Origin: a virus
Lineage: Duplodnaviria; Heunggongvirae; Uroviricota; Caudoviricetes
DNA: 14,869 nucleotides
IMG/VR virus record: IMGVR_UViG_3300043119_000443
Direction: 5' to 3' (one strand)
Under the pieces are notes generated by a model, which was not told where the DNA came from, ran no database searches, and saw nothing but the letters and a program-made list of their open reading frames with translations. Shown piece after piece: positions 1 through 13,791 of this stretch. The translations under genes were made by a program, and so were the position numbers. Every line of letters begins with the position of its first letter. Positions within the stretch are counted from its first letter, which is position 1.

Positions 1-707
1 ATCGCTTGCGCAGGATCGCCGACCGCCACAAGGCGCGAGTCGTCGCGCATGATCTTGCGAAGGATCGCGCGCTGAATCGGGTTCGTATCTTGCGCCTCGT
101 CCACGAAAACCCAGTCGAATTTCGGGAGCGTCACGCCTTCCTTGACGCACAGATAAAGCATGTCGTCGAAGTCGATCATTTTGGACGCGTTCGAGATGCG
201 CAGGAACTTGCGCGACCATTCGATTGCCGTCGCAAAATCCGCCGCGTCGCTTTCCAGCTCCATATCGTGATGATCCGCCAGCGCGACCCATTCCGACTCG
301 GTATCTTCCACAAGGCAACCGATGCCGACGCCTTTGGCAAGGCCGACCAGCTTGCGCACGAATTTCGCGTACAGGCGCGCGTCACGATCTTCCCAGTGAC
401 CAGCGTCCGAATCGGTCAGCCGATACATCTTGTCCGTCGTCGCGTCGCGCACGCCGCGCAGGCTCAGGGCCGGATTGAAAACCAGCGAGTGAAACGTGCG
501 AGCGTTCACGCCGCGCGATTTCAGCTCCGTCGCGATTGACTTGTTGAAGGCGAGAAAGATCACGCGCGCGTCGCCGCAACGCTTTGTCGCCTCGACGATG
601 GTCGTCGTTTTGCCGGACCCGGCGACGGCTTCCACGATCAAGTTCCCGGCTGTCGGGTTCTCGACGTGTGCGAAAATCGCCTGCTGATATTCGGACCACT
701 GTGTCAT
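1..707 (-). CDS. UvrD/Rep-like superfamily 1 helicase, N-terminal part (runs off left edge)
   Basis: Manual translation from ATG 707 (SD AGGAG): MTQWSEYQQAIF...LIVEAVAGSGKTTTI (Walker A), FLAFNKSIA (motif Ia), RTFHSL, DFDDML, VFVDEAQDTN (Walker B), VAVGDPAQA (motif III). Absent from the ORF track because the stop lies outside the window. Confidence 0.93.
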   Translation of the reverse strand, partial: MTQWSEYQQAIFAHVENPTAGNLIVEAVAGSGKTTTIVEATKRCGDARVIFLAFNKSIATELKSRGVNARTFHSLVFNPALSLRGVRDATTDKMYRLTDSDAGHWEDRDARLYAKFVRKLVGLAKGVGIGCLVEDTESEWVALADHHDMELESDAADFATAIEWSRKFLRISNASKMIDFDDMLYLCVKEGVTLPKFDWVFVDEAQDTNPIQRAILRKIMRDDSRLVAVGDPAQA

Positions 708-741
708 AACGGAAGCTCCTGAAACTCTCTGACGGTTGCGT

Positions 742-757
742 TGCGATTGTCATGCCA
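742..757 (-). promoter_or_regulatory. sigma54-type promoter TGGCATGACAATCGCA
   Basis: GG-N10-GC, 35 nt upstream of the helicase ATG. Confidence 0.6.
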
Positions 758-810
758 CGCCGGGCGGTCCGGATCAACCGGAAAATTATTACCGTGAAAC
801 GTCGCGCGCG

Positions 811-850
811 GTAAGGATAATGGCGGGTGGTCGATCGTTAAGGATAATGG
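811..850. repeat. Degenerate TTAAGGTTAA-type pair (GTAAGGATAA-N17-TTAAGGATAA)
   Basis: Direct repeat TAAGGATAATGGC x2 with 27-bp period, upstream of the 742-757 motif. Confidence 0.5.
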
Positions 851-1145
851 CCGGGCGGCGGATCGGGCGGACGCGGGGGCTTCAGCGGGTTACCCCTCCA
901 CCATTATCCGCGCCCGTTCTCCCGCCGTCATCCTTTCGCCCTTGCATGACGCTAGCCGGGCGTCGGGCTTCTCTTCGCGGCGATCACTTTCCGCTAGGCG
1001 TTTGCATCGCCACGTCTCTATAAAATCCTTCGGCTCTTTCGTCGCCGTTTCCTTGTGAACCAGAAAAACCCGGACCAGAAACTTCGGCCCTTGCGTCCAT
1101 CGGTCAGCCAGCTTCCCATTGCAATCCTTACGCCAGTTAGAGAAC

Positions 1146-1367
1146 GCGCCCGGTGCGGTTTAGGTCGCCGGGCGCGACCGTCTGATGGCTACCGCTGCCA
1201 AAATTTGAACCGTGCTGAATTGATCCGTTCCTAACCACGCTCAAGCCGCAGGGGCGAGCATGACGGGAGGGCAGACTTTTCGGACTCGCGTCCTAATCCA
1301 GCTTTGCAGTCTGTTACCAGTTCGAGCCCGCGCCGTTCACGCGCGGTTAGAGTTCCCTCCCTTGAGC
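1146..1367 (-). ncRNA. Candidate structured RNA (multi-stem domain plus H-type pseudoknot)
   Basis: Nested stems GCTCAAG/CTTGAGC, GGAGGG/CCCTCC, CCGCGC/GCGCGG, CAGACT/AGTCTG, GGAC-GCGA-GTCC; pseudoknot at 1179-1148; no convincing CDS. Confidence 0.35.
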
Positions 1368-1370
1368 AAC

Positions 1371-2120
1371 TTAATACACAAGTCCGAGTCGTTTTTGCAG
1401 ATACTTCGCGACCGCCTTGCGGACGCGTGCAATGTCCGCGCCCTTGCGGTAGGCGACGAAACTGATCTGCGTATCTGTCCAGCCGCCGGATCGCAGCGCG
1501 TTCATGATCAGCGTGCCGTGCATGTATCCCTCGCGGATGTGTTCGAGCAAGTGGCCGGTGTCGCCGTCGTGCGTGGTCATGCCTTCGCCCCGGAACGGGC
1601 CTTGCTGCGGAAGCGTCTCACGTTGCGCCATGCAGATGAAACAGTCGCCCAGTTCCGGCTTGGGAAGCTCGACGCCGTCCGGGAGCGTCGCCTTAACGAA
1701 GTCGCGAATCTGCTTCTTGAGCAACTTGGCCGCGACGCCGTCGCGCTGCGCTTGCGCGCGTGCGTCAGGATCATCCCAAGCGTCCGGGAGGATCATGCCA
1801 TCGGTGAAAGGAATCGCGTCCACGTGCTCCGGACGCTTGCCGACGAACCACTGGCCTTTGTTCGAGTAGATGTAGAAAGCGCCGAGGCCGAACGCGCCGA
1901 GGGAGATGTTGAGTCTGTCCTTAGTCGTGACGCTTTTCCAGCCGCCGGTGTCCAGCTTGACCCGTCCGTCCGGGAGCTGCACAGCGATGTCCGTTGTGTG
2001 CAGGCGGATGACGTTCTCGCCGTCGGCGCGCGTGTAGCGGAAAGTATTGTTCGCGATCTTGCGGGGCTTCCCGGCGATGTCCGGGACGCGCCTGAAACTG
2101 TCAGCCATAGAAATTCGCAT
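1371..2120 (-). CDS. Phage hypothetical protein, 249 aa, with possible Zn-binding C-terminal motif
   Basis: ATG 2120 after leader AGAGAGACACCG; motifs IRLHTTDIA...GGWKSVTTKDRLN and GDCFIC...HLLEH. Confidence 0.85.
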   Translation of the reverse strand: MRISMADSFRRVPDIAGKPRKIANNTFRYTRADGENVIRLHTTDIAVQLPDGRVKLDTGGWKSVTTKDRLNISLGAFGLGAFYIYSNKGQWFVGKRPEHVDAIPFTDGMILPDAWDDPDARAQAQRDGVAAKLLKKQIRDFVKATLPDGVELPKPELGDCFICMAQRETLPQQGPFRGEGMTTHDGDTGHLLEHIREGYMHGTLIMNALRSGGWTDTQISFVAYRKGADIARVRKAVAKYLQKRLGLVY

Positions 2121-2171
2121 CGGTGTCTCTCTGGTTTGTGTGGCGGGCCTTATGCCCGCCACGTCTAACAA

Positions 2172-2187
2172 TGCAAGCGCCGTGCCG
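2172..2187 (-). promoter_or_regulatory. sigma54-type promoter CGGCACGGCGCTTGCA
   Basis: Near-consensus, directly after the upstream TGA; followed by a 9-bp hairpin (2140-2162) and the leader. Confidence 0.75.
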
Positions 2188-2628
2188 TCAGTCCGCCCGC
2201 GTTTGGGAGAACGCGCCGACCACGCCGTTGGCCGTCAGGTGCTCGACGAACGCCAGCGCGCCGATCTCTTTGATGTCCATCGATTGCCCGCGATACTGGC
2301 CGGGGCCGTGAAAATACCAGTCGCTCGCCGTGTGGACGCCTTTCTTGACGTATCCAGCCCGGTCGCCCATGTCGCGCCCGGCTGTCAGTGCCTTGGCGAT
2401 CCGCAGGGCCTTCATCAGTTCGGGGTTCTGCTTGGCAGGGATGATGACCCAAGCAAAGCCGCAATACATCGGCTCGATTGCGTGCTCGCCGCCGCAGGCG
2501 TTCGCCGCTCTCGCCCATGCTTCATCGCCGCGCGCCTTCACTTCGGCGCGGTAGGCGGTGATAGCCTTGTCCATCGCAGCGGTTGCCGCCGCGTGTGCGT
2601 TGTTGATCAGTTCCACATAGTTGCGCAT
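2188..2628 (-). CDS. Phage hypothetical protein, 146 aa (CGFAWV...QSMDIKE motif)
   Basis: ATG 2628 after the same AGAGAGACACCG leader as 2120. Confidence 0.85.
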   Translation of the reverse strand: MRNYVELINNAHAAATAAMDKAITAYRAEVKARGDEAWARAANACGGEHAIEPMYCGFAWVIIPAKQNPELMKALRIAKALTAGRDMGDRAGYVKKGVHTASDWYFHGPGQYRGQSMDIKEIGALAFVEHLTANGVVGAFSQTRAD

Positions 2629-2672
2629 CGGTGTCTCTCTTTGTTGCAGTAGGGAAGCCATGGGGGATGTAT

Positions 2673-2688
2673 TGCATCCCCCATGCCA
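2673..2688 (-). promoter_or_regulatory. sigma54-type promoter TGGCATGGGGGATGCA inside an 11-bp inverted repeat
   Basis: GG-N10-GC; IR CATGGGGGATG-N5-CATCCCCCATG. Confidence 0.65.
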
Positions 2689-2693
2689 CGTGT

Positions 2694-2960
2694 CTACAGA
2701 AAAAAGCCTTCGCTGATCTCGACCGTCACGCCGGTCCGTTCAAGGATCGCCGCCGCAAGGTTTTCGCAGTGCTTGCGCGCCTTCTCTTTCCCTTTGGCGT
2801 CGCCGTTCTTGTACTGAAAATACTGCTCGCGTCCGAACGCCTCCCTGATCTTCGCGTATGCGTCCTTGCGCTCTTGCGAGCGGAGGGGGTACGTGCCGAT
2901 GGAAAGGTGACAGGTGAAATGCGACATTGAATGATCGCCGCCGAAAAACGTCTTAGTCAT
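2694..2960 (-). CDS. Hypothetical protein, 88 aa
   Basis: ATG 2960 with SD GGAG; ORF track frame. Confidence 0.75.
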   Translation of the reverse strand: MTKTFFGGDHSMSHFTCHLSIGTYPLRSQERKDAYAKIREAFGREQYFQYKNGDAKGKEKARKHCENLAAAILERTGVTVEISEGFFL

Positions 2961-3011
2961 AGTTCTCTCCGTGTCCATTACGGGACGGTCGTGCCGCCCC
3001 ATAACGAACAA

Positions 3012-3027
3012 TGCAAGCCCCATGCCA
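3012..3027 (-). promoter_or_regulatory. sigma54-type promoter TGGCATGGGGCTTGCA
   Basis: Near-consensus, intergenic, upstream of ATG 2960. Confidence 0.75.
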
Positions 3028-3051
3028 CGTGCCCGAGGCCCGTGTCCTTAA

Positions 3052-3096
3052 CCTTACCACCGATTGCCCGTTAGCCTTACCACCGATTGCCCGTTA
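3052..3096. repeat. Tandem 22-bp repeat CCTTACCACCGATTGCCCGTTA x2, followed by TTAA half-sites and TTAACCAT
   Basis: Copies at 3052-3073 and 3075-3096 (period 23). Confidence 0.85.
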
Positions 3097-3109
3097 ATGA
3101 TTAACGGCG

Positions 3110-3490
3110 TTAACCATAAATCCATTCTTTCGGTCGTCGCTCCGCGAACGGGGTCATCGAATGCACGATGGCCGTGTTGCTGGCGCGCGGTTCGATCATG
3201 ACACAATGACCGCCGCGAATTGTCAGCCCGCCGCCCTTCTCATAGTTGCGCGAGACTTCCAGATAATCCTCGAACGATGGCCCGAAACGGAATCGGATCG
3301 TCGCGTGTTCGAGAATGGGCCGCGCAGGATCGTCGCCATAGCCGACGATTGTGTTCCGCGTCAATTCATCCGCGACGCCAAGCTGCTCGTCCAGACGGTC
3401 GCGCAGGCTCTTTTCGTTGCGCTCCATCGACTCGATGTGCGTCTGCCACTTCTTAGGCAAACGCTCGAACCCGTCCGGCCTGATCATCAT
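3110..3490 (-). CDS. Hypothetical protein, 126 aa
   Basis: ATGA overlap with the upstream stop at 3490-3487. Confidence 0.75.
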   Translation of the reverse strand: MMIRPDGFERLPKKWQTHIESMERNEKSLRDRLDEQLGVADELTRNTIVGYGDDPARPILEHATIRFRFGPSFEDYLEVSRNYEKGGGLTIRGGHCVMIEPRASNTAIVHSMTPFAERRPKEWIYG

Positions 3491-3891
3491 GATCTGATCC
3501 AATACGTGACGCCGTCAAAATCGACCGACGTATAATCTTGCTGCAACTCTTCCGCCGCCTGTTTCCAGTCGATGCACGTCTGCGGCCATGACGCATTGCT
3601 GTCAATCGCGCCGATGTCATCGGCGAATTCACGCGCCCAGCGTTCGAAGTGAGAGTCGCGTATCAGCGCCTCGCCATGATGCCAGTCGGCGCAACCTTCG
3701 GCTTCTTCCGCCAGCGCCAGAAGCGCCGTCAGCTCTTCCTGCTCTTCCGTCATATCGACGCCGTTAACCATGAAACCTTCTTCGGTTTCTTCGCCGCCGT
3801 CCAGCTCTTCCTGTAGCTGCTCGATCTTTTCGATCACGTCGCGGCTGTCGATGATGTCGTCGCCGTTCGAGATGTTGATTCTGCGGGCCAT
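3487..3891 (-). CDS. Highly acidic protein, ArdA/Ocr-like DNA-mimic (antirestriction) candidate, 134 aa
   Basis: 35 D+E versus 9 K+R by manual count; C-terminal CIDWKQAAEELQQDY resembles the ArdA Y(I/F)DYE.Y.RDL motif. CDS solid, function tentative. Confidence 0.6.
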   Translation of the reverse strand: MARRINISNGDDIIDSRDVIEKIEQLQEELDGGEETEEGFMVNGVDMTEEQEELTALLALAEEAEGCADWHHGEALIRDSHFERWAREFADDIGAIDSNASWPQTCIDWKQAAEELQQDYTSVDFDGVTYWIRS

Positions 3892-3924
3892 TCTGAAACT
3901 CTCCGGTTGATGTAGTCCAATCAA

Positions 3925-3940
3925 TGCAAGCGCCGTGCCT
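3925..3940 (-). promoter_or_regulatory. sigma54-type promoter AGGCACGGCGCTTGCA
   Basis: Shares 17 identical bp with the 2172 site; overlaps the upstream TAG. Confidence 0.75.
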
Positions 3941-4175
3941 ACAGGTGCGTGCGCAGGTCCAGCGTCATGTTCTGCAACGTCCGGATGGCGAGGTGAAAGC
4001 CATCCTCCAGACCTTTGCAGTACGTCTTAGCCTCAAGCGCCAGCGCCGCCCGTGCCGCCGCCTTGTCCACGTCCGGGCGGTTGTCGGCGCTCAGCGATTT
4101 GACCGGCTGATCGTTAACCGCGATGACCGCGTAGTCCGGTGTCGGAAACAGTACAGTGATCTTCTGGTTACCCAT
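3939..4175 (-). CDS. Hypothetical protein, 78 aa
   Basis: SD AGGAGG, ATG one base after the upstream TAA. Confidence 0.8.
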   Translation of the reverse strand: MGNQKITVLFPTPDYAVIAVNDQPVKSLSADNRPDVDKAAARAALALEAKTYCKGLEDGFHLAIRTLQNMTLDLRTHL

Positions 4176-4176
4176 G

Positions 4177-4716
4177 TTAGCCTCCTAGTTCCGCAATGGC
4201 GCGGTCCTTTTCCTGATTGTATGGGTAGAGCAATTCCGATGCCAAGTCTCGCGCGCATTCGGCGATGTAGTCCTCACAATTGCTCTCGACGCCGCCGAGG
4301 TATTGCGTTTCATGCGTGCCGTCCAGCGTCACACCGATGACCACGTATTGCCATTCATCATCACACCAGCCGCGCAGAAATTCATAGTCGCGGCGGACCG
4401 CTTCCTTGCGGATGTCGCGGGCCGTGGGCGTGCGTCCCAGACGTTTCGCCAGCTTGGCCTTGTGCTCTTCGCACAGGCCCCATCCGTCGCGCTTGGCGAT
4501 GGTCATCGTCTCGAACCAGTTATACAGGCGCTCGTAATGGCGTTCGCAAGAAAGACGCCAGTATCCACGCGGTTCGGTCGTCGTCTCGCGTCGCTGCCAG
4601 TCGCCGACAACGCCGTGACCTTCAGCGCGCTCCCATGGCGTGTCGCCGCAATCGTCGCGCTCGATTGAAACGGTGAAGGTCGCGCCTTCATGTTCGAATT
4701 TGTCGCCGTCGTACAT
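4177..4716 (-). CDS. Phage hypothetical protein, 179 aa
   Basis: Leader CAACCGAAGAGTTTCAGAATG; acidic/aromatic, PWERAEGHG and DYEFLRGWCDDEWQY motifs. Confidence 0.85.
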   Translation of the reverse strand: MYDGDKFEHEGATFTVSIERDDCGDTPWERAEGHGVVGDWQRRETTTEPRGYWRLSCERHYERLYNWFETMTIAKRDGWGLCEEHKAKLAKRLGRTPTARDIRKEAVRRDYEFLRGWCDDEWQYVVIGVTLDGTHETQYLGGVESNCEDYIAECARDLASELLYPYNQEKDRAIAELGG

Positions 4717-4749
4717 TCTGAAACTCTTCGGTTGCTCTAGTTCGAATGA

Positions 4750-4765
4750 TGCAATCGCTATGCCA
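4750..4765 (-). promoter_or_regulatory. sigma54-type promoter TGGCATAGCGATTGCA
   Basis: Near-consensus, 33 nt upstream of ATG 4716. Confidence 0.75.
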
Positions 4766-4902
4766 TGCCGGCTAGTCTAGGTAAGTGTGCGCTGGCGTAC
4801 TCTGTTACAAATAGCGACCGCGACCTACTTCGATCTGATTCCTGATCTCGCGCCAGCCGTCGAATCTCTCGACGATCTCGCGGCCATGCGTGATATGGCG
4901 TA

Positions 4903-5085
4903 CTAGGTCGAAGGCGGGGCGACAAACCCATGTCGCTCCGCTATCGCCGCCAGCCAGTTGATCGTGGCCGGTAGCGTCGCCTGTATGATAGCGTCGCGCA
5001 GGATCGCCGACGCCGGGTGCAGGTGGCCGTCGATCTCGACCCAACGCGCCAGCGCGTTCGCCAGTGCTTGCGTGTCCCTGTCCAT
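4903..5085 (-). CDS. Hypothetical protein, 60 aa (possible -1 frame extension to 4805)
   Basis: ATG immediately follows the upstream TAG. Confidence 0.6.
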   Translation of the reverse strand: MDRDTQALANALARWVEIDGHLHPASAILRDAIIQATLPATINWLAAIAERHGFVAPPST

Positions 5086-5280
5086 CTATTCGATCTCGAT
5101 TGTAAACTGGGGGCCGGGCGTGTCGTGCTTGTGATGCGCGTAATGCCAGCCCTTCACGAACCAGCGCGCCGACTGATCATCGGGGAACGTGTGCGAAGGG
5201 GGCGATATGTGCAGCGACCGCGACGGGGGCGCGAACATGACTCTTCCGTCGCTCAGGCGCGTGAGGTGATACGTGATCAT
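5086..5280 (-). CDS. Hypothetical protein, 64 aa
   Basis: ATGA coupling at 5280-5277. Confidence 0.7.
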   Translation of the reverse strand: MITYHLTRLSDGRVMFAPPSRSLHISPPSHTFPDDQSARWFVKGWHYAHHKHDTPGPQFTIEIE

Positions 5281-5474
5281 GCGCGCAGCTCGTACGCCAG
5301 CGCCCGGATATTGCGGACGCGTTCCTCGACCACTAGGTCCGACTCGTCAAGGATCACGCCATACAGCGCGCCGTCGTCCATTGCGCCCAACAGGCGCGCG
5401 TGTGCCGCCCATTTTTCTTTGCAGCGCCCGGTGTAGGTCATGCCGTCACGGTTGACGTAGCTGATTCGGTACAC
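5277..5474 (-). CDS. Hypothetical protein, 65 aa
   Basis: GTG 5474 with SD GGAG. Confidence 0.7.
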   Translation of the reverse strand: MYRISYVNRDGMTYTGRCKEKWAAHARLLGAMDDGALYGVILDESDLVVEERVRNIRALAYELRA

Positions 5475-5568
5475 TTGTGTCTCCGTACAGGTTGCTCTCC
5501 CCTGCCACAAGCAAAGCACATGCCATGAAAATGGCCGCAGTGATTAACAGCGAGAGTGTCTGTTTCAT
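5446..5568 (-). CDS. Possible 40-aa hydrophobic peptide (MKQTLSLLITAAIFMACALLVAG...)
   Basis: Signal/TM-like N-terminus, fills the gap after the 5574 stop; no clear SD. Confidence 0.35.
   Translation of the reverse strand: MKQTLSLLITAAIFMACALLVAGESNLYGDTSVPNQLRQP
5510..5525 (-). promoter_or_regulatory. sigma54-type promoter TGGCATGTGCTTTGCT
   Basis: Near-consensus, 35 nt upstream of GTG 5474. Confidence 0.65.
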
Positions 5569-5573
5569 TAGGG

Positions 5574-5780
5574 TTACCGGGGCTCGATCTCGAATTCCAT
5601 CCGGTGCTTGGCGCGTCCCTTGTTGAGACTTTCGCACGTCAGGTCAGCATCGCCGTCGTCGCGCTTGTAAACCTTAGCGCGGTCCCGGAATTGCGTAAAC
5701 GCTTCCTGTCCCTGCTTGCCGGTGTAGTACAGGACGCGGCCCGACTTGATGTCGGTGCCGCGCAAAATACTGTTAGCCAC
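5574..5780 (-). CDS. Hypothetical protein, 68 aa
   Basis: GTG 3 nt after the upstream TAG. Confidence 0.7.
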   Translation of the reverse strand: MANSILRGTDIKSGRVLYYTGKQGQEAFTQFRDRAKVYKRDDGDADLTCESLNKGRAKHRMEFEIEPR

Positions 5781-5783
5781 GTT

Positions 5784-6191
5784 CTAGTCCCTTTCGATCT
5801 TCTTCACTTCCACGGTGAACCCGGCGATCATCAGCTCGCGCCGGACGTTCTGCGCCGTCGATTCGTCATCCGTCTGGACAATGCACTGTGACACAAGTTT
5901 GCCGTCGCGCAATCCCTCGACCATGTCCTTTGCATCTTTCAGGCCGTAGTTCGCGCCCCAGTGGCGGATTGCCTTGATGCCGTCGATCAGCCGCGCGCCG
6001 TCGTGGTTCGTGATGATGACGCGATACAGCACAGCCGCGCCATACACTTCATTGGCAAGCTCTTCGGCCCATTTCTGTAGACCGTTCTGGATCATGACCG
6101 CCAGCAGAGGGTCCGCCTCGCCGATGGCCGGTTGCAGCATCTTGCGCTCGCGGATCATGCGGCGGATGAAGTCGTCGCGTGTCAAAAGCAT
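5784..6191 (-). CDS. Ribosomal protein bL12 (L7/L12) C-terminal-domain-like protein
   Basis: YRVII...LIDGIKAIR..YGLKDAKDMVE...AQNVRRELMIAGFTVEVK parallels bL12 FDVIL...VAVIKAVR..GLGLKEAKDLVE...AEALKKALEEAGAEVEVK; start ATG 6191 or TTG 6200. Confidence 0.75.
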   Translation of the reverse strand: MLLTRDDFIRRMIRERKMLQPAIGEADPLLAVMIQNGLQKWAEELANEVYGAAVLYRVIITNHDGARLIDGIKAIRHWGANYGLKDAKDMVEGLRDGKLVSQCIVQTDDESTAQNVRRELMIAGFTVEVKKIERD

Positions 6192-6196
6192 CTGGT

Positions 6197-6430
6197 TCAA
6201 TCCATTACGTCAAAGGTTGCATCGTCCGGCAGGCCGTGGATCGTGGCGACTTCGCTCACGGTCACGCCGTCCGGTTCGTCGCCGTCGCTCTCGATGTTGA
6301 GCGTGGCGAATGTGGGCTTCGCGTGCGTGCCGACGTACGCCAGCGCCTTGCTCAGCGCCTCGCCTTCCGACTCCGCTTTGATGTAGAGCGTGGCCCAGAC
6401 GGGCACGTCAACAGAGTATTCCAGTGTCAC
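6197..6430 (-). CDS. Acidic hypothetical protein, 77 aa
   Basis: GTGA coupling, SD GGGAG. Confidence 0.75.
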   Translation of the reverse strand: MTLEYSVDVPVWATLYIKAESEGEALSKALAYVGTHAKPTFATLNIESDGDEPDGVTVSEVATIHGLPDDATFDVMD

Positions 6431-6651
6431 GATGCGACTCCCATCAGTTGATCGATTGATCCGACGATATACTGCCGACGGTCCGCGTCATAGACCGATC
6501 CGCCCGTCTCGCGAACGCCGCGAACAAACGCCGCGAAGGCATTGCCGTCGCCCGCCGTGTTCTCGAACCGCGCCACAAGTTGACCGTCCACGCTCACGAT
6601 GACCGGGCCGGTGATGTGATTCGAACTTTGCCGCATGAAGTCGTAACGCAT
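6427..6651 (-). CDS. Hypothetical protein, 74 aa
   Basis: Leader AGAGAGACACCTATG. Confidence 0.8.
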   Translation of the reverse strand: MRYDFMRQSSNHITGPVIVSVDGQLVARFENTAGDGNAFAAFVRGVRETGGSVYDADRRQYIVGSIDQLMGVAS

Positions 6652-6690
6652 AGGTGTCTCTCTCTGTTTTCCCGCCCGTGTCGGGCGTGC

Positions 6691-6933
6691 TCAGTGCCTT
6701 GCGGGATTCATGCCAACGCGCCGGTCGCGCTGCTCAGCGCTTTCCATCTGGTAAACCGTGCCGACGCGATACACGTCTTTCCCGATATCGCACGCCTGCC
6801 ATCCCCCAAAGTTGGCTTGGCCGATGCCGCGCGAAAACATATTGCCGGGCAGGCCGACCGTGCCGTCAGGAAGCCGTCGCACAGTGCCGACGTACCCGCG
6901 CCAGTTCATCGGGTGGACGCCTTGCGGGGTCAC
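6691..6933 (-). CDS. Hypothetical protein, 80 aa
   Basis: GTGA coupling to the upstream gene. Confidence 0.7.
   Translation of the reverse strand: MTPQGVHPMNWRGYVGTVRRLPDGTVGLPGNMFSRGIGQANFGGWQACDIGKDVYRVGTVYQMESAEQRDRRVGMNPARH
6700..6715 (-). promoter_or_regulatory. Weaker sigma54-type promoter TGGCATGAATCCCGCA
   Basis: GG-N10-GC at the same relative position as the 2172 and 2673 sites. Confidence 0.45.
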
Positions 6934-7172
6934 GTGTGGCGCTCCAGCTTGTAACGCTCTTTCGAGACGGAACCGTCCGCCGTGCGCTTCTCGATGATGA
7001 TGATGTCCCGGTCCGCGCCCAGTTGGCGACGCTCGCGCGTGTAGCTGATCAGGTCAGGCAACGGGCCGATGATGCCGGGCAGGGCGTTGTCGAATTCCTG
7101 CTCTTGACCGTATGACGCGATCACAGCGAACGGGCCAGCGGGATACAGTTGCCGGTGGAGTGTGCAGCGCAT
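6930..7172 (-). CDS. Hypothetical protein, 80 aa
   Basis: Leader CAACCGGAGATTTTCAAAATG. Confidence 0.8.
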   Translation of the reverse strand: MRCTLHRQLYPAGPFAVIASYGQEQEFDNALPGIIGPLPDLISYTRERRQLGADRDIIIIEKRTADGSVSKERYKLERHT

Positions 7173-7192
7173 TTTGAAAATCTCCGGTTGCT

Positions 7193-7426
7193 CTAATCAG
7201 GACGATGCAACATGCGTGCCACGCTCTTGTACTCACGATAGGCGTCGCGCGTTAAGTCTTGATAAACCATAACCGCCTCCGCATACATCCGCGTCCATTC
7301 GTCGGGCGTGATCGCCTTGGCGCTCCGCATCTTTTCGAGCCTATACATCTCGTCTTCCAGCAGCTCGCTTGCCGGGCTCGCGACCTCGCAATACTTGGCC
7401 CAAGCCGCCGCTTCCCAGACGCTCAT
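7193..7426 (-). CDS. Hypothetical protein, 77 aa
   Basis: ATGA coupling. Confidence 0.7.
   Translation of the reverse strand: MSVWEAAAWAKYCEVASPASELLEDEMYRLEKMRSAKAITPDEWTRMYAEAVMVYQDLTRDAYREYKSVARMLHRPD
7206..7221 (-). promoter_or_regulatory. sigma54-type promoter TGGCACGCATGTTGCA
   Basis: Full match to TGGCACG-N4-TTGCW. Confidence 0.8.
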
Positions 7427-7620
7427 GTCAGCAGCGTGATCGTGAAGTCGAATCCCTGATCTGGAATCTTGACCACGCGCCCGGCTTCAAGGTCGGGCAA
7501 CACGCGGGTGATCTCCCCACGGGTGAACCCGTACGCCGTCAGGGCGGCGCGAACGGTGCGGCCCGCCGCGACGCGCGGCTTGGCTTCCGATGACGGTGTG
7601 CTGATTTGAACGCGTACCAT
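7423..7620 (-). CDS. Hypothetical protein, 65 aa
   Basis: TAATG coupling. Confidence 0.7.
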   Translation of the reverse strand: MVRVQISTPSSEAKPRVAAGRTVRAALTAYGFTRGEITRVLPDLEAGRVVKIPDQGFDFTITLLT

Positions 7621-7871
7621 TATATCACCTTCATGCGCAGCGCGTCGTTAGCGCGCTCGATCTCTTTCGCCGTGAACTCTTGCGCGGCGATGTACGCGCC
7701 AGCGAAGCCGCAACGCTCCAGCTCGTCCTTGCATTCGGCCCAGCGCCGCCGCGCCATCTCTTCCACGTCACGGGCCAAGCTGGCGTTTTGCAGCGCGACC
7801 GCTTGGCGCGTTGCGAGCGTCGCGGCTTCGCGCAGGAATCGGGCGTCTGCGTTTTTCTTGATCAGGTTCAT
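7620..7871 (-). CDS. Hypothetical helical protein, 83 aa
   Basis: ATGA coupling. Confidence 0.7.
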   Translation of the reverse strand: MNLIKKNADARFLREAATLATRQAVALQNASLARDVEEMARRRWAECKDELERCGFAGAYIAAQEFTAKEIERANDALRMKVI

Positions 7872-8662
7872 ATCAGTCCCTCAATGCCTTCGTCTGTCTC
7901 TTCATCATCGTATGCAATAGGCGTGCCAGCAGCGAAAGGTATGACCGGCTCGTATTCCATCCCGCCTGCATACGCTAGGGGCCGACATGACACAAGCTGA
8001 AAATTGATTGCGTCCCAGAATGGGAGGCCCTTCCCATTGCGGCCCTGCACTGGGATATACACGTCGGGCTTATTGAGTGTCCGGGGCCATGGCGTCGTTT
8101 CATGCCGCCGGGTGATCGCTATGCCTTTCTGTGACAGCCGGACGCCGGTCAGCAGATAGTCCAGCACATTGTTCGCAGCGAATAGCGCGCGGGTCGCCTC
8201 ACGTTCGGCGCGGGCATGATAGGACGATATCAGAATGTGGGGCGTCTCCCCATACGGTTGCAGTCTCATAATGGGAAGATGATGCCAGTAGATAAAAGTC
8301 GGTTGGCCGTGCTTGGCCTTAAAGCCGAGGGTCCGGTTAATGCGCGCCTGATAGTCCAGAGGCCGCAACGCGTCCACGTCTTTACCAAAGTTGCCACGTC
8401 GCGGGTCGCGCTTGGTAAATACTGACTTGGCCGTCGTCTTGGGGCCACGGGCTAGGTACTCTTTCAGGAAGTCGCCGCGCAAAGCCGGGGGCATCCCTCC
8501 CTCGACCATGCGCTCGCCGGACAAACCGGACAACGTCCAGCCGTCCCATTGCCCGTTAGGGGTGACAGCCCCCATCGTCTCGTCCACGCGGAATTTCGTG
8601 GGCCGTTGCTTGGCGCGGCTAACTATGGCCCGGTGCCGGGCTAGGGCGGTTGCGTCTATCAT
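7868..8662 (-). CDS. Hypothetical protein, 264 aa, basic N-half with acidic tail
   Basis: Long ORF coupled to the downstream gene; no family recognised. Confidence 0.75.
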   Translation of the reverse strand: MIDATALARHRAIVSRAKQRPTKFRVDETMGAVTPNGQWDGWTLSGLSGERMVEGGMPPALRGDFLKEYLARGPKTTAKSVFTKRDPRRGNFGKDVDALRPLDYQARINRTLGFKAKHGQPTFIYWHHLPIMRLQPYGETPHILISSYHARAEREATRALFAANNVLDYLLTGVRLSQKGIAITRRHETTPWPRTLNKPDVYIPVQGRNGKGLPFWDAINFQLVSCRPLAYAGGMEYEPVIPFAAGTPIAYDDEETDEGIEGLI

Positions 8663-8673
8663 CTTTCCGTACT

Positions 8674-8689
8674 AGCACGATCCGGGCCA
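8674..8689 (-). promoter_or_regulatory. sigma54-type promoter TGGCCCGGATCGTGCT (near-leaderless)
   Basis: GG-N10-GC; ATG falls at about +2. Confidence 0.45.
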
Positions 8690-8699
8690 CGGGGACAAG

Positions 8700-9612
8700 A
8701 GGGTAGGGGGCCGTCACCCTCACAACTGGGGGCGGTCACCCCGTCTTAACGAGTTGGGCGGCGTTTAGGTTAATTGGCGTGGAGCACTAACTTACCGTAT
8801 CCCCCCTAATCGCTCCGTGGCGGCGGGGCTCCCGATTAGGGTTACTGTCCCCGTATAAGTTAGGGTATCCATCCCCTAATTAGCATATTAGGGTTTATAA
8901 TAGGGTGCCAATCCCCTAATCACGATAATGTGATATCCTAATATTTTCTCAGCACTTTAAGATGAGGAGAAGGTTAATAGGTAGTGATTGTCAAAAAAGC
9001 CCATAAATAAAGGATAAAAAGCCCCTTTTTCAACCTCGCATTGGCCGTGGTAGGGTGGAAGGTTAATGGCGCGTCGGCTGTTAAGCTTAAGGCCGAGGGG
9101 GACTTGCTCTAATTAGGCTTAACGTCGTATAACTTAAAATTAACCCTAACAGCCCGTATAACCTCATTTATAATAGCTATAATTAACCTTAACGGGCTAT
9201 AAATTAAGGTTAATTTAGCCTATTAGGGTTAATTTTCGACGAGGCCACGGGGGACTTCAAGGCTGTTAAGGTTAACAGCTCTTGTTTTTCATGGTAACCT
9301 TAACACATATTCGGCGATTAGCACAAAATTAACCTTAACAGGCTATTAAGGTTAATGGCGTTAAGGTTAATGCAGGCCGAGGGGGACTTCAAGGCCACAG
9401 GGGACTTCAAGGTTAACAGGCCAGAGGGGACTTCAAGGTTAATTAGTAGTAAATCCGAGGCGGCGGCTGTCATTAATGGGCCGTTAACCTTAACGCGTTA
9501 ACCTTAACAGGGCGGTAAGGTTAACAGGCTGTTAAGGTTAATGGCGTGTTAAGGTTAATGGGCATTAACTATAAACGGCTGTTAAGGTTAACCGGCGGCG
9601 GCGCGTTAACCA
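8700..9612. repeat. Non-coding AT-rich array of TTAA(GG/CC)TTAA units with GGGGACTTCAAGG and ATCCCCTAAT repeats
   Basis: About 900 bp with no ORF; chains such as GGTTAA-caggctg-TTAAGGTTAA-tggcgtg-TTAAGGTTAA (9519-9558). Confidence 0.9.
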
Positions 9613-9625
9613 TGGTCACGGCAGG

Positions 9626-9757
9626 TTAGACATCCCCCTTGTCGTGGGGGATGTCGAAGATGACCGGGGAGTAATTCCGCCAGACCATGCCGAGGTGATG
9701 CGGGCAGCGGATCAGGCAGATAAAGAGGGCGTAGGACTTCCAAAGGATGCGGTGCAT
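9626..9757 (-). CDS. Small hypothetical protein, 43 aa
   Basis: SD ACGGAG, own promoter upstream. Confidence 0.6.
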   Translation of the reverse strand: MHRILWKSYALFICLIRCPHHLGMVWRNYSPVIFDIPHDKGDV

Positions 9758-9783
9758 GGTCGATCTCCGTTTCTGATGACGCA

Positions 9784-9830
9784 TGTATGCCATAGACCCG
9801 GACGTTATGCAATAGCTATTTTGCATTATT
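9784..9830 (-). promoter_or_regulatory. sigma70-type promoter (TTGCAT 9812-9807), truncated copy of the cassette left arm
   Basis: TATGCAATAGCTATTTTGCATTATT identical to 10756-10780. Confidence 0.6.
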
Positions 9831-9832
9831 CC

Positions 9833-9873
9833 AAAAAAAATTGCTCGCCCCGCGCATCATGGCGGGGCGAGCA
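9833..9873 (-). terminator. Rho-independent terminator
   Basis: 12-bp stem TGCTCGCCCCGC/GCGGGGCGAGCA followed by an A and T8 on the minus strand. Confidence 0.85.
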
Positions 9874-9900
9874 GTTTACCTGTAGACAACGGAGAGAAAC

Positions 9901-10140
9901 CTACAGGCTAGTAAGAAGCGCCACAATCCAGAATATCAGGCCCATGGGCGCGCATACGTACAGCCATGCCTTGCGCGCTGCTAGGCCTATCAGCCACCCT
10001 AGATCAGCGATCCAGCGGGGCAGGGCATGGTCTGGCGTCCAGCCGGTCCGCTCGCATTCGAAAGGCTTGGAAGGCGCTTGCGCGCCTTCCGTGTATACCC
10101 CTTCGACAATTGGCCGCTGGCGTGTTCCAAAGGCGCTCAA
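9901..10140 (-). CDS. Small membrane protein, 79 aa
   Basis: TTG start overlapping the upstream TGA, GGAGG 7 nt upstream; hydrophobic C-terminus. Confidence 0.65.
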   Translation of the reverse strand: MSAFGTRQRPIVEGVYTEGAQAPSKPFECERTGWTPDHALPRWIADLGWLIGLAARKAWLYVCAPMGLIFWIVALLTSL

Positions 10141-10370
10141 GTCAATCCCTCCACCCATTGCCACAGGTCAGGCTTGTTCATGCAAGATCGCTGCCCGCGA
10201 TCGTGGCGCACGTGGACGGAAGCGCCGACGGGATAGGCGCGAAGCACGTCCGCCGCTGCTTTGGCGTCGCTGCCGGTATACATGGCCGCGACAGGCTCGA
10301 TGGACATCGCCACGACTCCCCGGCTATCCGGGGAGGTGCAGCGGATTTGGTTCGCTGATACCGTGATCAT
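10137..10370 (-). CDS. Hypothetical protein, 77 aa
   Basis: SD AAGGAGG. Confidence 0.75.
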   Translation of the reverse strand: MITVSANQIRCTSPDSRGVVAMSIEPVAAMYTGSDAKAAADVLRAYPVGASVHVRHDRGQRSCMNKPDLWQWVEGLT

Positions 10371-10373
10371 GGT

Positions 10374-10640
10374 CTAGGCCTCCTTCAGAAAGTAATACAT
10401 TGCCAGAGTGCAGCCGAGTCGCGGCGCTTCCGGGCAGATAAGCGCAACCTGATGGGCGTGAGCAAAATAGTGCTCTTCCTCTTCGTCCATATGCGCGGGC
10501 GCTCCGGCGTCGATGCGAGCGATGAAGGCATCCGCTGCGGCGATATCTGCGTCAGACAGGCCTTCCGGGTCATCGTTGAAGAAATAGCAGGCCCAATGCG
10601 CGGGGGCGGTGGCGTCGATATTGATCAGGTCGCGGCTCAT
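10374..10640 (-). CDS. Acidic hypothetical protein, 88 aa (WACYFFNDDPEGLSDAD motif)
   Basis: SD ACGGAG, ATG 10640. Confidence 0.8.
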   Translation of the reverse strand: MSRDLINIDATAPAHWACYFFNDDPEGLSDADIAAADAFIARIDAGAPAHMDEEEEHYFAHAHQVALICPEAPRLGCTLAMYYFLKEA

Positions 10641-10664
10641 GATTCTGTCTCCGTTTTTTTTTGG

Positions 10665-10727
10665 TCGAGAGAGGGAAACCGCCGGGGCTTCGGGGGGTAG
10701 GAAGCTTGTCCCGTTTCCCTCTCTCGA
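10665..10727. repeat. 15-bp perfect inverted repeat forming a 5'-UTR hairpin
   Basis: TCGAGAGAGGGAAAC (10665-10679) / GTTTCCCTCTCTCGA (10713-10727). Confidence 0.85.
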
Positions 10728-10777
10728 TACGCAAGACATAGCACGACTGGCGGAGTATGCAATAGCTATTTTGCATT

Positions 10778-10793
10778 ATTACAAATTTGTAAT
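10778..10793. promoter_or_regulatory. Palindromic operator ATTACAAATTTGTAAT (copy 1)
   Basis: Perfect 16-bp palindrome between divergent -35 boxes. Confidence 0.8.
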
Positions 10794-10808
10794 GTTGCAT
10801 TTTTCTTC

Positions 10809-10837
10809 TTGACAGGCTCGGATTTTTGTGATATAAT
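10809..10837 (+). promoter_or_regulatory. Consensus sigma70 promoter TTGACA-N17-TATAAT, antisense to the genes
   Basis: Exact consensus. Confidence 0.85.
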
Positions 10838-10911
10838 GGATTGACGACCTATTTTTGCCCGTTAACGAGTTGTTAACCTTAATAGGCTGTTAAGGTTAAC
10901 GCCGCGCCACG

Positions 10912-10947
10912 AAAAATTAACCATGCCAGTGCGAAACTGGCATGGTT
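10912..10947 (-). terminator. Terminator hairpin AACCATGCCAG/CTGGCATGGTT + AATTTTT
   Basis: Directly after the stop at 10955. Confidence 0.7.
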
Positions 10948-10953
10948 CTTGCA
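10938..10953 (+). promoter_or_regulatory. sigma54-type motif TGGCATGGTTCTTGCA
   Basis: Consensus match in the hairpin arm. Confidence 0.55.
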
Positions 10954-10954
10954 T

Positions 10955-11113
10955 TCATAGCAGTCGGCGTTTTCGCTTGTCCTTAACCCAGCCTCGCATG
11001 GGTTGCGGCGCTTTTACAGCTTTCATTAACCCTGCCAATGGGTTGCGCTTTCGTCGGCGTTTTACGAACAATTTCACGGAAGTTTGGGGAGGCTTTCGCC
11101 TCCCCTCACTCAC
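10955..11113 (-). CDS. Possible very basic 52-aa protein (..KRRRKRNPLAG..KRKRRLL)
   Basis: GTG overlapping the upstream TAG; stop abuts the cassette A terminator. Confidence 0.45.
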   Translation of the reverse strand: MSEGRRKPPQTSVKLFVKRRRKRNPLAGLMKAVKAPQPMRGWVKDKRKRRLL

Positions 11114-11379
11114 TAGGCCGTGATCGAATTCCCTTCGTGCTTGCCTGCCGCGATCTCTGCGGCGGTCTGGTCCGCCAGCGCCTTCAGGGCGTCCGCAGCG
11201 CCGACATAGTCGCGCGCCTTGAACTTCTTCCCAGTGAGCGCCGCAGCCGTGTCCATCATGGCTTTCGGGGTGTATGCACGGTTGACCTTCATCCCGGTTT
11301 TTGCGTAGAGGCGCAGCGCCGAGGCGATGGCGACACACTGGTAAACCGAGACTGCGGTAGAGCCTGAAAACATGGTCAT
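11113..11379 (-). CDS. Phage hypothetical protein, 88 aa (ALRLYAKTGMKVNRAYTP motif)
   Basis: SD ACGGAG, promoter from cassette B. Confidence 0.85.
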   Translation of the reverse strand: MTMFSGSTAVSVYQCVAIASALRLYAKTGMKVNRAYTPKAMMDTAAALTGKKFKARDYVGAADALKALADQTAAEIAAGKHEGNSITA

Positions 11380-11431
11380 TGGTCGTTCTCCGTTCGTTGT
11401 TGATGCACTAGAGATAGCACATCCATCGGCA

Positions 11432-11630
11432 TATGCAATAACTATTTTGCATTATTACAAATTTGTAATGTTGCATTTTTCCTATTGACCCGGTCCGGCT
11501 TTTATGGTATGATGGAATGACGACCTATTTTTTCGCGTTAACGACTTATTAACCTTAATGGCGTGTTAAGGTTAACGCCGCGAGGCTAAAAATTAACCGT
11601 GCCTCCCTTTCGGGTGGCACGGTTCTTGCA
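11432..11630. repeat. ~200-bp cassette, copy B
   Basis: Operator 11454-11469; TTGACC-17-TATGAT 11485-11513; TTAA cluster 11538-11576; hairpin 11595-11624; TGGCACGGTTCTTGCA 11615-11630. Confidence 0.92.
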
Positions 11631-11870
11631 TTACCCCTGCGGGTTCGGCTTGTACTCGCCGACCGGACCACTGTAGAGCAGTTGGAGCACTCCCGCGCCA
11701 TTGTGGCGCGTCAGGTACACGCTGCACATATCGACGCCGTTTGCCTCATACAGCCGCACCTCGACAGCGCCTTGCCATGACGCGGCGCGCGTCGTGAGGC
11801 CCGAGGATTTATGGCCGAGGCGGGAAGCTTCCGTGCGTCCGCCCTGAACCGTTCCGCGAAAGTGAGCCAT
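11631..11870 (-). CDS. Phage hypothetical protein, 79 aa (MAHFRGTVQG motif)
   Basis: SD ACGGAG; stop abuts cassette B. Confidence 0.85.
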   Translation of the reverse strand: MAHFRGTVQGGRTEASRLGHKSSGLTTRAASWQGAVEVRLYEANGVDMCSVYLTRHNGAGVLQLLYSGPVGEYKPNPQG

Positions 11871-11918
11871 TTTCTATTCTCCGTTTTCCGGGGGCGTTCA
11901 TCGCCTCCCATGCGTGTA

Positions 11919-11987
11919 GGTATCGCATATCCGGCCAATGCAGTCAACAGAATAATGCACACATTACAAATTTGTAATGTGTGCATT
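11919..11987 (-). promoter_or_regulatory. sigma70-type promoter TTGACT-17-GATACC with a 34-bp perfect palindromic operator (11954-11987)
   Basis: AATGCACACATTACAAATTTGTAATGTGTGCATT. Confidence 0.75.
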
Positions 11988-11997
11988 TTCCGCTTGA

Positions 11998-12258
11998 CTA
12001 ATAGTCGGCGATCTTGTCCGCCTCGCGTTCGAGAAAAATCATCTGCACAGGCGTCAAGCGGTGGTCGCCTTGGCCGCTTCCGTTGTCGTCCAGAATGCCC
12101 ATCATAAGCGCCACGGTGAGGCTAGACGAGTGTTTCCCGTTCGGGTCGGAGAAGCATACGAACCAGCGATTCCCGTCCTCCGGACCCATGTCCGTGCATT
12201 CGAAAATCACGAGCGAGTGACCCTTCGCGATCACTTTGTCATTGCGTCCCAGTTTCAT
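11998..12258 (-). CDS. Hypothetical protein, 86 aa
   Basis: SD GGAG, TAAT-ATG coupling. Confidence 0.8.
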   Translation of the reverse strand: MKLGRNDKVIAKGHSLVIFECTDMGPEDGNRWFVCFSDPNGKHSSSLTVALMMGILDDNGSGQGDHRLTPVQMIFLEREADKIADY

Positions 12259-12259
12259 A

Positions 12260-12358
12260 TTAACGGCTCCATTTTTTGTGGAAGCGAACCGCGCAAATGC
12301 GGTTGCTGAGTTCTTCCGAAGGGAAGAAGAAAAAGACGATTTTCAGAACCGTTTCCAT
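12260..12358 (-). CDS. Small protein, 32 aa (METVLKIVFFFFPSEELSNRICAVRFHKKWSR)
   Basis: SD ACGGAG and cassette C promoter; below the ORF-track cutoff. Confidence 0.6.
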   Translation of the reverse strand: METVLKIVFFFFPSEELSNRICAVRFHKKWSR

Positions 12359-12405
12359 TTGGTCGCTCCGTTGTTGATGACCCTTTATCGCATAGGTTGG
12401 CCGCA

Positions 12406-12614
12406 TATGCAATAGGATAATTGCATTATTACAAATTTGTAATGTTGCATTTTTCCTCTTGACCCAACCGGATTTATCTGGTAAAATGGATTGACGACCT
12501 ATTTTTCCGCGTTAATGAGTTGTTAACCTTAACAGAATGTGGCGCGCTGTTAAGGTTAACAAATCGAGGCGAAAAATTAACCATGCCAACCGCGGGGCTG
12601 GCATGGTTCTTGCT
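12406..12614. repeat. ~200-bp cassette, copy C
   Basis: Operator 12428-12443; TTGACC-17-TAAAAT 12459-12487; TTAA cluster 12512-12560 (N17 spacer); hairpin 12579-12608; TGGCATGGTTCTTGCT 12599-12614. Confidence 0.92.
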
Positions 12615-12928
12615 TAGGCGTCCACGGGCTCGGGATCGTCCGGCGATTCGAAGAATTCGCCAAGCTCAACAAATAGGACCGTGCAGCCCTGATCATATCT
12701 GATCATGTCGCCATAGTCCGAACGGCTTGAACGCTCGCCAGTGAGTCCAGCTTCGCGCCTAGCAGCCTTGGCGACACGCGCGCGACGCTTGCGCCATGCT
12801 TCGGGCGAATACTGATCGCCATCGCTCCGGCGATGTTCGCAGCGGATAATGCCGCGACGAACCCAGCAATAATTCGCCTCGCCTCCAAAGGTGTCAGTGA
12901 ATTCCCAGCGGTAAAGATGTTCGGCCAT
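12614..12928 (-). CDS. Phage hypothetical protein, 104 aa (EFTDTFGGEANYCWV motif)
   Basis: SD GAGGA, ATG 12928; stop abuts cassette C. Confidence 0.85.
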   Translation of the reverse strand: MAEHLYRWEFTDTFGGEANYCWVRRGIIRCEHRRSDGDQYSPEAWRKRRARVAKAARREAGLTGERSSRSDYGDMIRYDQGCTVLFVELGEFFESPDDPEPVDA

Positions 12929-12930
12929 TG

Positions 12931-13095
12931 TCAATCCTCAAAAAGCAATTCTGCGAATTCGTCGCGCGGCTGTTTGGACGCTTTCTCTTCGTCGCGAATC
13001 TCTTGACAGTATTTCTCGACGATTTTCAACTGACGAAGAATCTCGTCCATCGTCGGCTTTCGGCCATGAAGATAAAGGCTGTTTTCGGGGGCCAT
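12931..13095 (-). CDS. Small charged protein, 54 aa (MAPENSLYLHGRKPTMDEILRQLK...LLFED)
   Basis: TAATG coupling; fills the gap exactly. Confidence 0.6.
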   Translation of the reverse strand: MAPENSLYLHGRKPTMDEILRQLKIVEKYCQEIRDEEKASKQPRDEFAELLFED

Positions 13096-13277: not shown

Positions 13278-13287
13278 TTGCGTGCTC

Positions 13288-13429: not shown

Positions 13430-13456
13430 CTTTTTAACAGCAACGGAGAACTGCAA

Positions 13457-13746: not shown

Positions 13747-13791
13747 TGCAATTAGCGTGCCAACATGGGTGCCCATGCAAGGCCCATGCCA
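13747..13791 (-). promoter_or_regulatory. Two tandem sigma54-type promoters TGGCACGCTAATTGCA (13747-13762) and TGGCATGGGCCTTGCA (13776-13791)
   Basis: Both near-perfect consensus. Confidence 0.7.

Follow-up and report, generated by a model that had tools for sequence, protein, structure and literature searches.

Predicted sigma-54-type promoters, densely placed in the accessory and middle genes of an uncultured siphophage with no recognised activator gene

The window considered here, meaning the whole stretch of 14,869 nucleotides (nt) that was analysed, corresponds to bases 392-15260 of the 78,869-bp IMG/VR virus record IMGVR_UViG_3300043119_000443. In its left block (700-8700), small leftward genes are preceded by copies of TGGCAY-N5-TTGCW, a bipartite motif of the -24/-12 type. 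These motifs are probably promoters for the host sigma-54 (RpoN) RNA polymerase (RNAP) holoenzyme, which would form a promoter class of their own in a siphophage without an RNAP. This reading is based on the half-sites, spacing, orientation and distance to start codons, which fit the -24/-12 consensus, on purifying selection on the half-sites in two relatives, on a left block without a good competing sigma-70 consensus, on the finding of no phage transcription machinery, and on a tail protein that points to the Alphaproteobacteria, where RpoN is common. What appears to be new here, as judged from sequence, is how densely near-consensus sigma-54 sites are set, gene by gene, among the accessory and middle genes of an activator-less phage.

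Exact sites were defined by the strict pattern TGGCAY-N5-TTGCW, against which mismatches were also counted; gene calls were based on codon usage, and window coordinates are used throughout unless genome positions are stated. There were 11 exact sites in the window, where 0.01 were expected (200 shuffles), and 13 in the 78.9-kb genome, where 0.13 were expected with a maximum of 2 (300 dinucleotide shuffles). The dense use of sigma-54-type motifs that had been noted in an earlier reading of the window, made from the letters alone (the sequence-only reading), was upheld against shuffled controls. All 13 exact sites are confined to genome positions 3.4-21.2 kb, with none in the structural block (~26-52 kb of the genome), and about ten further sites have one or two mismatches. 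When the same half-sites were searched across the genome with spacers of 0-4 and 6-11 bases, 0-1 matches were found for each length. Of the 13 exact sites, eight are followed at 10-70 nt by a start codon in the same orientation, a placement found for 4% of random positions.

The sequence-only reading had listed ten promoters, all in the left block. All ten motifs were found at their positions on the coding (minus) strand, and each retains GG-N10-GC. Compared with TGGCAY-N5-TTGCW, they have no mismatch at 3012, 4750, 5510 and 7206, one at 742, 2172, 2673 and 3925, and two at 6700 and 8674. As a count, ten was too low, since exact sites at 4229, 7913, 13747 and 13776 on the minus strand had been missed, as had those at 10938, 11615 and 12599 on the plus strand, the one-mismatch plus-strand site at 14843, and two more exact sites, 16453 and 20806, beyond the window. 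The rightward sites at 14843, 16453 and 20806 also contradict the idea that the regulon is limited to the left block, where 12 sites head minus-strand genes. The predicted sites of the left block, including one weaker site at 1120, are as follows.

742-757, minus strand: sigma-54-type promoter with one mismatch, 34 nt before ATG 707 of a UvrD-like helicase gene (Pfam PF00580)
1120-1135, minus strand: weak sigma-54-like site with one mismatch, within a conserved non-coding stretch, with a terminator-like hairpin (1090-1072) ~30 nt further on
2172-2187, minus strand: sigma-54-type promoter with one mismatch, against the upstream stop codon and 63 nt before ATG 2108, with a hairpin in the leader
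2673-2688, minus strand: sigma-54-type promoter with one mismatch, 44 nt before ATG 2628
3012-3027, minus strand: exact sigma-54-type promoter, 51 nt before ATG 2960, with TTAA-type boxes upstream
3925-3940, minus strand: sigma-54-type promoter with one mismatch, overlapping the upstream stop codon and 33 nt before ATG 3891 of an ArdA-like anti-restriction homologue
4229-4244, minus strand: exact sigma-54-type promoter that falls in the upstream gene's 3' end, 53 nt before ATG 4175
4750-4765, minus strand: exact sigma-54-type promoter, 33 nt before ATG 4716
5510-5525, minus strand: exact sigma-54-type promoter, 35 nt before GTG 5474
6700-6715, minus strand: sigma-54-type promoter with two mismatches, 48 nt before ATG 6651
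7206-7221, minus strand: exact sigma-54-type promoter, 33 nt before ATG 7172
7913-7928, minus strand: exact sigma-54-type promoter, 41 nt before ATG 7871
8674-8689, minus strand: TGGCCC-type sigma-54-like site with two mismatches, at the left edge of a TTAA repeat array and 11 nt before ATG 8662

Distances of 11-55 nt to the start codon had been given by the sequence-only reading. The upstream, co-oriented placement stands; the motif end is 33-63 nt from the start codon at 11 of the 12 sites, and 11 nt from it at 8674 if ATG 8662 is used. As had been noted, motifs are often set against the upstream stop codon, which they abut or overlap at 2172, 2673 and 3925, and others (4229, 6700, 7206 and 7913) fall within the last codons of the upstream gene. 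Genes without a motif are mostly coupled to a neighbour, also as described, with a 4-nt overlap with the upstream gene or a gap of 0-5 nt. A simple scan of the coding strand of the left block gave no good sigma-70 consensus, with one apparent exception that overlaps site 4229; there the sigma-70-like -10 box is lost in the relatives, and the sigma-54 half-sites are retained. The UvrD-like helicase gene behind 742 exits the window and wraps round the circularly assembled genome.

Two relatives, a full-length genome of 79,283 bp and a 44.9-kb fragment, were obtained in a portal search of viral contigs. The relatives originate from the IMG/VR samples 3300017716, 3300017766 and 3300017778. Both are syntenic with the phage at 70-90% nucleotide identity, the left block being the most diverged part; 10 and 11 exact motifs were counted in them, and a reversed-pattern control gave zero. 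At orthologous sites in the two relatives, the half-sites were changed at 20 of 297 positions (6.7%) and the spacer at 46 of 135 (34%), which is roughly one independent comparison since the two relatives are close to each other. This substitution pattern indicates selection on a bipartite site with a free spacer.

The individual sites follow the same pattern, and their flanks diverge freely. Two sites, both imperfect in the phage, have the exact consensus in the relatives, namely 2673, which is in the same place with four of its five spacer bases changed, and 6700, which has different spacers in both. The site at 7913 is exact in both relatives with three spacer changes, those at 4229 and 5510 are exact in relative G002 (the latter with three spacer changes), and 4750 has one spacer change. 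The 16-mer at 742 is identical in both relatives, its upstream flank having diverged, and the weak site at 1120 retains GG-N10-GC with a different mismatch. The site at 8674 has one mismatch in the relatives, and 7206 is not kept, the spacing there being one base shorter. At site 2673, the sequence immediately downstream repeats the spacer and -12 element in perfect inverted form (2673-2700); the relatives have another sequence there with a repeat of the same kind.

A further possibility is that the motifs are passengers of a duplicated promoter-leader or terminator cassette and have been kept by descent. Sites 3925, 4750 and 7206 do belong to a common promoter-leader cassette, with a shared leader and an identical 33-nt spacing to the ATG, and three plus-strand copies lie within a ~200-bp repeat. 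This explanation is nevertheless very improbable, given that spacers and flanks differ among most sites, that the half-sites alone are constant in the relatives where the spacers drift, and that sites imperfect here are perfect there.

The ends of the virus record share a 127-bp repeat, indicating a circular or permuted assembly. PHROGs matches were found for tape measure, portal and tail proteins, DNA polymerase, primase, helicase and ribonucleotide reductase, a set that identifies the phage as a siphovirus with its own replication genes. Its portal shares ~38-42% identity with the portals of Bordetella phage FP1, of Pseudomonas phage PaMx74 and of Xanthomonas phages from the YuA-related family, and on these protein matches it appears to be a distant relative of the YuA group, a siphophage without an RNAP. 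The DNA polymerase is ~39% identical to enzymes of Brevundimonas, Rhodobacter and Variovorax phages. Matches to the tail host-specificity protein (1142 amino acids, aa) were nearly all in phages of Alphaproteobacteria (PhiJL001 and Caulobacter, Rhodobacter, Brevundimonas and Roseobacter phages), so that an alphaproteobacterial host is likely. A Caulobacter-like host had been suggested by the sequence-only reading; the evidence points to the class and not to that narrower group. Scans of bacterial genomes with the portal and with the ribonucleotide reductase gave no match, nor did a megablast search with the window, and a left-block protein had no close relative in viral contigs.

Sites outside the left block, including the weaker ones elsewhere in the genome, were found in the following places.

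10938-10953, 11615-11630 and 12599-12614, plus strand: exact sigma-54-like sites opposed to minus-strand genes, each embedded in a terminator hairpin (3' arm, minus strand) of a ~200-bp repeated cassette
13776 and 13747 (13747-13791), minus strand: two exact sigma-54-type sites in tandem, which are antisense to gene 13457-13699 on the plus strand and have the leftward, presumably early zone downstream of them
14843-14858, plus strand: sigma-54-type site with one mismatch, 39 nt ahead of the gene at 14898 that opens the rightward block, with TTGACG just upstream
16453 and 20806 (window coordinates), plus strand: exact sigma-54-type sites beyond the window end, heading rightward genes
65841 (one mismatch, before the replication module), 52977 (one mismatch, before a gene) and two near 77.4-77.9 kb: weaker sites

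In the relatives, the half-sites of 14843 are retained with three spacer changes. The gene behind 16453 encodes an SPFH-domain protein. A tRNA-Ile(GAT) gene is located at 14683-14759 on the plus strand, just upstream of the 14843 site. The tandem sites at 13747 and 13776 are absent at the corresponding place in the relatives.

The ~200-bp cassette is present in three copies (10756-10954, 11432-11630 and 12406-12614), which contain the minus-strand terminator hairpin, TTAA boxes, a palindrome, the leftward promoter of the next genes and, on the plus strand, a strong TTGACA-17-TATAAT promoter that is followed by no gene. Co-variation of the hairpin arms from copy to copy (CAT/ATG vs CGT/ACG) indicates that the hairpin is under selection. 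The plus-strand sites at 10938, 11615 and 12599 may be antisense promoters, roadblocks or by-products.

Such sites raise the question of whether some or all of the motifs bind sigma-54 without promoter function, their closed complexes acting as roadblocks or as a sink for holoenzyme. The sigma-54 holoenzyme forms stable closed complexes without an activator, three exact sites oppose genes in terminator hairpins, and the two tandem sites have no gene directly behind them. In addition, tandem exact sites 5-35 nt apart were found in at least 120 viral contig stretches, for which a rough chance expectation is below one, and no true activator domain was detected in a sample of 44 phage records bearing sigma-54 sites, made up of the two relatives and 42 records that have tandem arrays, with 14 of the 44 at least 90% complete. 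A sink or roadblock is still improbable for this phage, because each of the 12 left-block sites points towards a start codon, mostly at 33-63 nt and in three cases at an identical 33 nt, none of which a sink needs, and because the left block has no other promoter candidates.

Between the left block and the rightward genes there is a zone with promoters of another type, bracketed by two repeat arrays.

9600-13460, minus strand: zone of ten small genes (32-104 aa) behind sigma-70-type promoters
8700-9640, no strand: gene-free array of low guanine-plus-cytosine (GC) content with TTAACCTTAA units plus other repeats, separating the sigma-54 block from the sigma-70 zone
13800-14200, no strand: second gene-free low-GC array, composed mainly of TTAACCTTAA units

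The promoters of this zone have a TTGCAT or TTGACT box followed after 14-15 nt by a GCTATCTC-like box; each includes a perfect ATTACAAATTTGTAAT palindrome, and a CATCAACAACGGAGC leader is held in common. The GCTATCTC-like -10 box and the promoter layout resemble the Caulobacter housekeeping promoter consensus. The ten small proteins had no known function in Pfam and PHROGs searches, and the zone is presumed to be an early class. The arrays also contain a CCTTGAAGTCCCC repeat, and 28 TTAA-N2-TTAA, 13 TTAA-N7-TTAA and 18 TTAA-N13-TTAA units were counted genome-wide. The array at 8700-9640 is a candidate shared regulatory region. An HTH_3 protein (15927-16319), whose gene belongs to the predicted rightward sigma-54 operon, is a candidate for a repressor that would act at the ATTACAAATTTGTAAT palindrome.

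Regulators and transcription machinery were searched for with Pfam and PHROGs in 30 proteins of the window and middle region, and with PHROGs also in the 10 largest proteins of the genome. The view of the sequence-only reading that no phage activator can be recognised agreed with the outcome. Enhancer-binding protein searches of the phage (PF00158 and PF00004) gave nothing at E<=1, no GAFTGA-like loop was present in six frames of the three genomes (the phage and its two relatives), and neither the sigma-54 DNA-binding domain (PF04552) nor sigma-70 region 2 (PF04542) had a match in the phage. A T7-type RNAP gave no match in the phage either, in a search whose positive control also gave none; the large open reading frames (ORFs) are all otherwise accounted for. 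Apart from the HTH_3 protein, no regulator was found among the proteins annotated with Pfam and PHROGs.

The absence of an encoded activator would also fit a small phage-made factor that redirects core or sigma-70 polymerase to the motif, its likeness to sigma-54 promoters being convergent. The ten sigma-70-zone proteins without known function would provide candidates, and a precedent is given by the middle promoters of phage YuA, which need a phage cofactor; YuA has a conserved promoter motif, separate from its sigma-54 sites, that shows no activity unless phage factors are present (PMC10914365). We consider such convergence improbable, since the sigma-54 consensus is matched at all eleven specified positions and in the exact spacing, the YuA cofactor motif looks nothing like TGGCAY-N5-TTGCW, and no sigma-like domain was found in the phage.

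If the motifs are read by host sigma-54 holoenzyme, about 12 sites would each drive one small leftward gene of 700-8700 or a translationally coupled set of two to four such genes. The products include the UvrD-like helicase, the ArdA-like protein and many without assigned function. Further sites would drive the rightward genes at 14843, 16453 and 20806, and possibly the replication module (65841). Transcripts would start ~12 nt after the GC of the motif and have leaders of 20-50 nt, many with a 5' hairpin. The site at 8674 would differ: ATG 8662 was taken as the start because a third-position, codon-like substitution pattern against the relatives begins there, and from the expected start point and the 11-nt distance to this ATG, the mRNA may be leaderless. 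The zone at 9600-13460, with its sigma-70-type promoters and operator palindrome, would probably be expressed earlier, which suggests that the sigma-54 set is a middle or accessory class.

Sigma-54 promoters are considered to be silent without an ATP-driven activator. Since the phage has no enhancer-binding ATPase, opening of the promoters must rest on a host activator or on an unrecognised phage factor. The first, with an activator that is already present or is induced by infection, is our preferred guess, at about an even chance; the second is clearly less likely. The ArdA-like gene behind 3925 is an argument that at least some sigma-54 promoters must fire soon after entry, which favours a pre-existing host activator. 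Gating by the cell cycle, as in Caulobacter, is conjecture, and the delayed timing put forward by the sequence-only reading is a hypothesis. A more speculative possibility, which we regard as unlikely, is that no conventional AAA+ enhancer-binding protein takes part and that the sigma-54 promoters are opened in another way, either through a small early protein of the sigma-70 zone that licenses the closed complex or through the flanking TTAA arrays acting as a shared remote enhancer for a host regulator. If true, it could explain many of the activator-less sigma-54 arrays in uncultured phages.

Several observations weigh against promoters served by host sigma-54. The activator was found neither as a phage gene nor as a recognisable enhancer site: k-mers from the 200 nt upstream of 24 sites revealed no element in common, and TTAA-type boxes are upstream of only about half of these sites. 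A classical layout of upstream activator sequence (UAS) and integration host factor (IHF) site would not fit, as most promoters are set within the upstream gene or directly against it. Five exact sites head no gene, the three antisense ones in terminator hairpins and the two tandem ones that face an opposing gene. The one-mismatch sites at 14843, 52977 and 65841 have TTGAC 5-6 nt upstream, so that a sigma-70 reading is possible for them. It is awkward for an anti-restriction-like gene to stand behind a promoter that needs an activator, if its product is needed at once, and the presence of rpoN in the host is an assumption.

With its accessory and middle genes mostly behind predicted sigma-54 promoters and no activator carried, the phage would either read the physiological state of its host or open the complex in another way. 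Either answer would show how phages time their programmes through host alternative sigma factors. The ~15 natural promoters with varied spacers also provide a clean set for studying sigma-54 promoter strength.

Sigma-54-dependent promoters were reportedly described in Pseudomonas phage YuA by Ceyssens et al. in 2008. YuA is likewise an RNAP-less siphophage of the same broad group, with host sigma-54 used beside sigma-70 and no phage activator described. Its record (GenBank NC_010116) has three annotated -24/-12 promoters, among the late genes of the head and tail region, that are weak matches to the consensus, none of them exact, in contrast to the ~15-20 near-consensus sites found here in small-gene and middle regions. 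In YuA-type use, sigma-54 promoters serve virion and lysis genes; the structural region of the present phage lacks exact sites. The equivalent small-gene region of YuA instead uses a distinct conserved, phage-specific promoter motif that needs a phage cofactor (PMC10914365; NC_010116 notes).

Bacterial sigma-54 regulons, such as glnAp2 with NtrC and the class III/IV flagellar genes of Caulobacter with FlbD, have the same -24/-12 sequence, spacing and position relative to genes. They differ in that neither a UAS/IHF architecture nor an activator gene is visible in the phage, and they are far less dense than the phage block, which has one site per ~700 bp.

Alphaproteobacterial phages with clustered CtrA boxes (Mascolo et al. 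2022, PMC9437464), described in a paper that makes no mention of sigma-54, RpoN, FlbD or TacA, are comparable in having genes wired to a host regulator and repeat-rich gaps between gene blocks. Here, TTAA-rich arrays with some TTAA-N7-TTAA units lie beside the sigma-54 block, but the main unit is TTAA-N2-TTAA, which does not have the CtrA spacing.

No exact site was found in eight cultured phages (~0.8 Mb), namely YuA, FP1, Brevundimonas Delta, RcSimone-Hastad, PhiJL001, phiCbK, Citromicrobium RXM and DSS3P8, which are distant relatives or alphaproteobacterial phages sharing single proteins. The statement of the sequence-only reading that such dense sigma-54 use is unusual for phages thus holds against the literature and these cultured phages, but not against uncultured phages, with their arrays in at least 120 contigs. 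The latter resemble the present phage in having near-consensus sigma-54 sites without an activator; their arrays are mostly packed in control regions, whereas the sites here are spread, one per gene or small operon.

A possible partner of the sigma-54 sites was sought among the ORFs near such arrays. The gene behind 2172 (1371-2108) encodes a 245-aa protein with a Kyano_Gp96-like N-terminal domain, and has no ortholog in the two relatives. This domain was the sole one from the phage proteins to recur in ORFs near 120 viral loci with tandem sigma-54 sites, and 57 of 80 viral loci picked for the domain had sigma-54 sites. A causal tie was rejected as a lineage effect, because array-bearing phages of a single low-GC clade had supplied the seed of the alignment, because six cultured carriers of the domain, cyanophages among them, have no sites, and because only one of 50 array-bearing records has the domain. 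To our knowledge, cyanophage hosts lack rpoN. The low-GC clade consists of large uncultured phages (~40% GC, contigs up to 243 kb), in which 215 exact sites were counted in 1.32 Mb, as compared with 0-5 at other spacings. The predicted fold of the Kyano_Gp96-like protein (pLDDT 83) had no match among solved structures. All-against-all clustering of the array-near ORFs placed about half of the loci in one phage clade and gave no candidate partner.

The weak site at 1120 belongs to a non-coding stretch (940-1370, minus strand) between the gene for the 245-aa protein and the helicase promoter. This stretch is 90-100% identical in the relatives, as compared with 70-78% for the neighbouring genes, and was found in the two relatives only. 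Compensatory changes are seen in its hairpins, which have GNRA-type loops. The stretch was nevertheless rejected as a structured RNA, with no Rfam match and a folding z-score of +0.9. Site 1120 may drive a short transcript, although its status is uncertain.

Within the left block, a gene at 5784-6191 on the minus strand encodes a 135-aa protein, the C-terminal half of which matches the ribosomal L7/L12 C-terminal domain (Pfam PF00542, E 1.6e-6).

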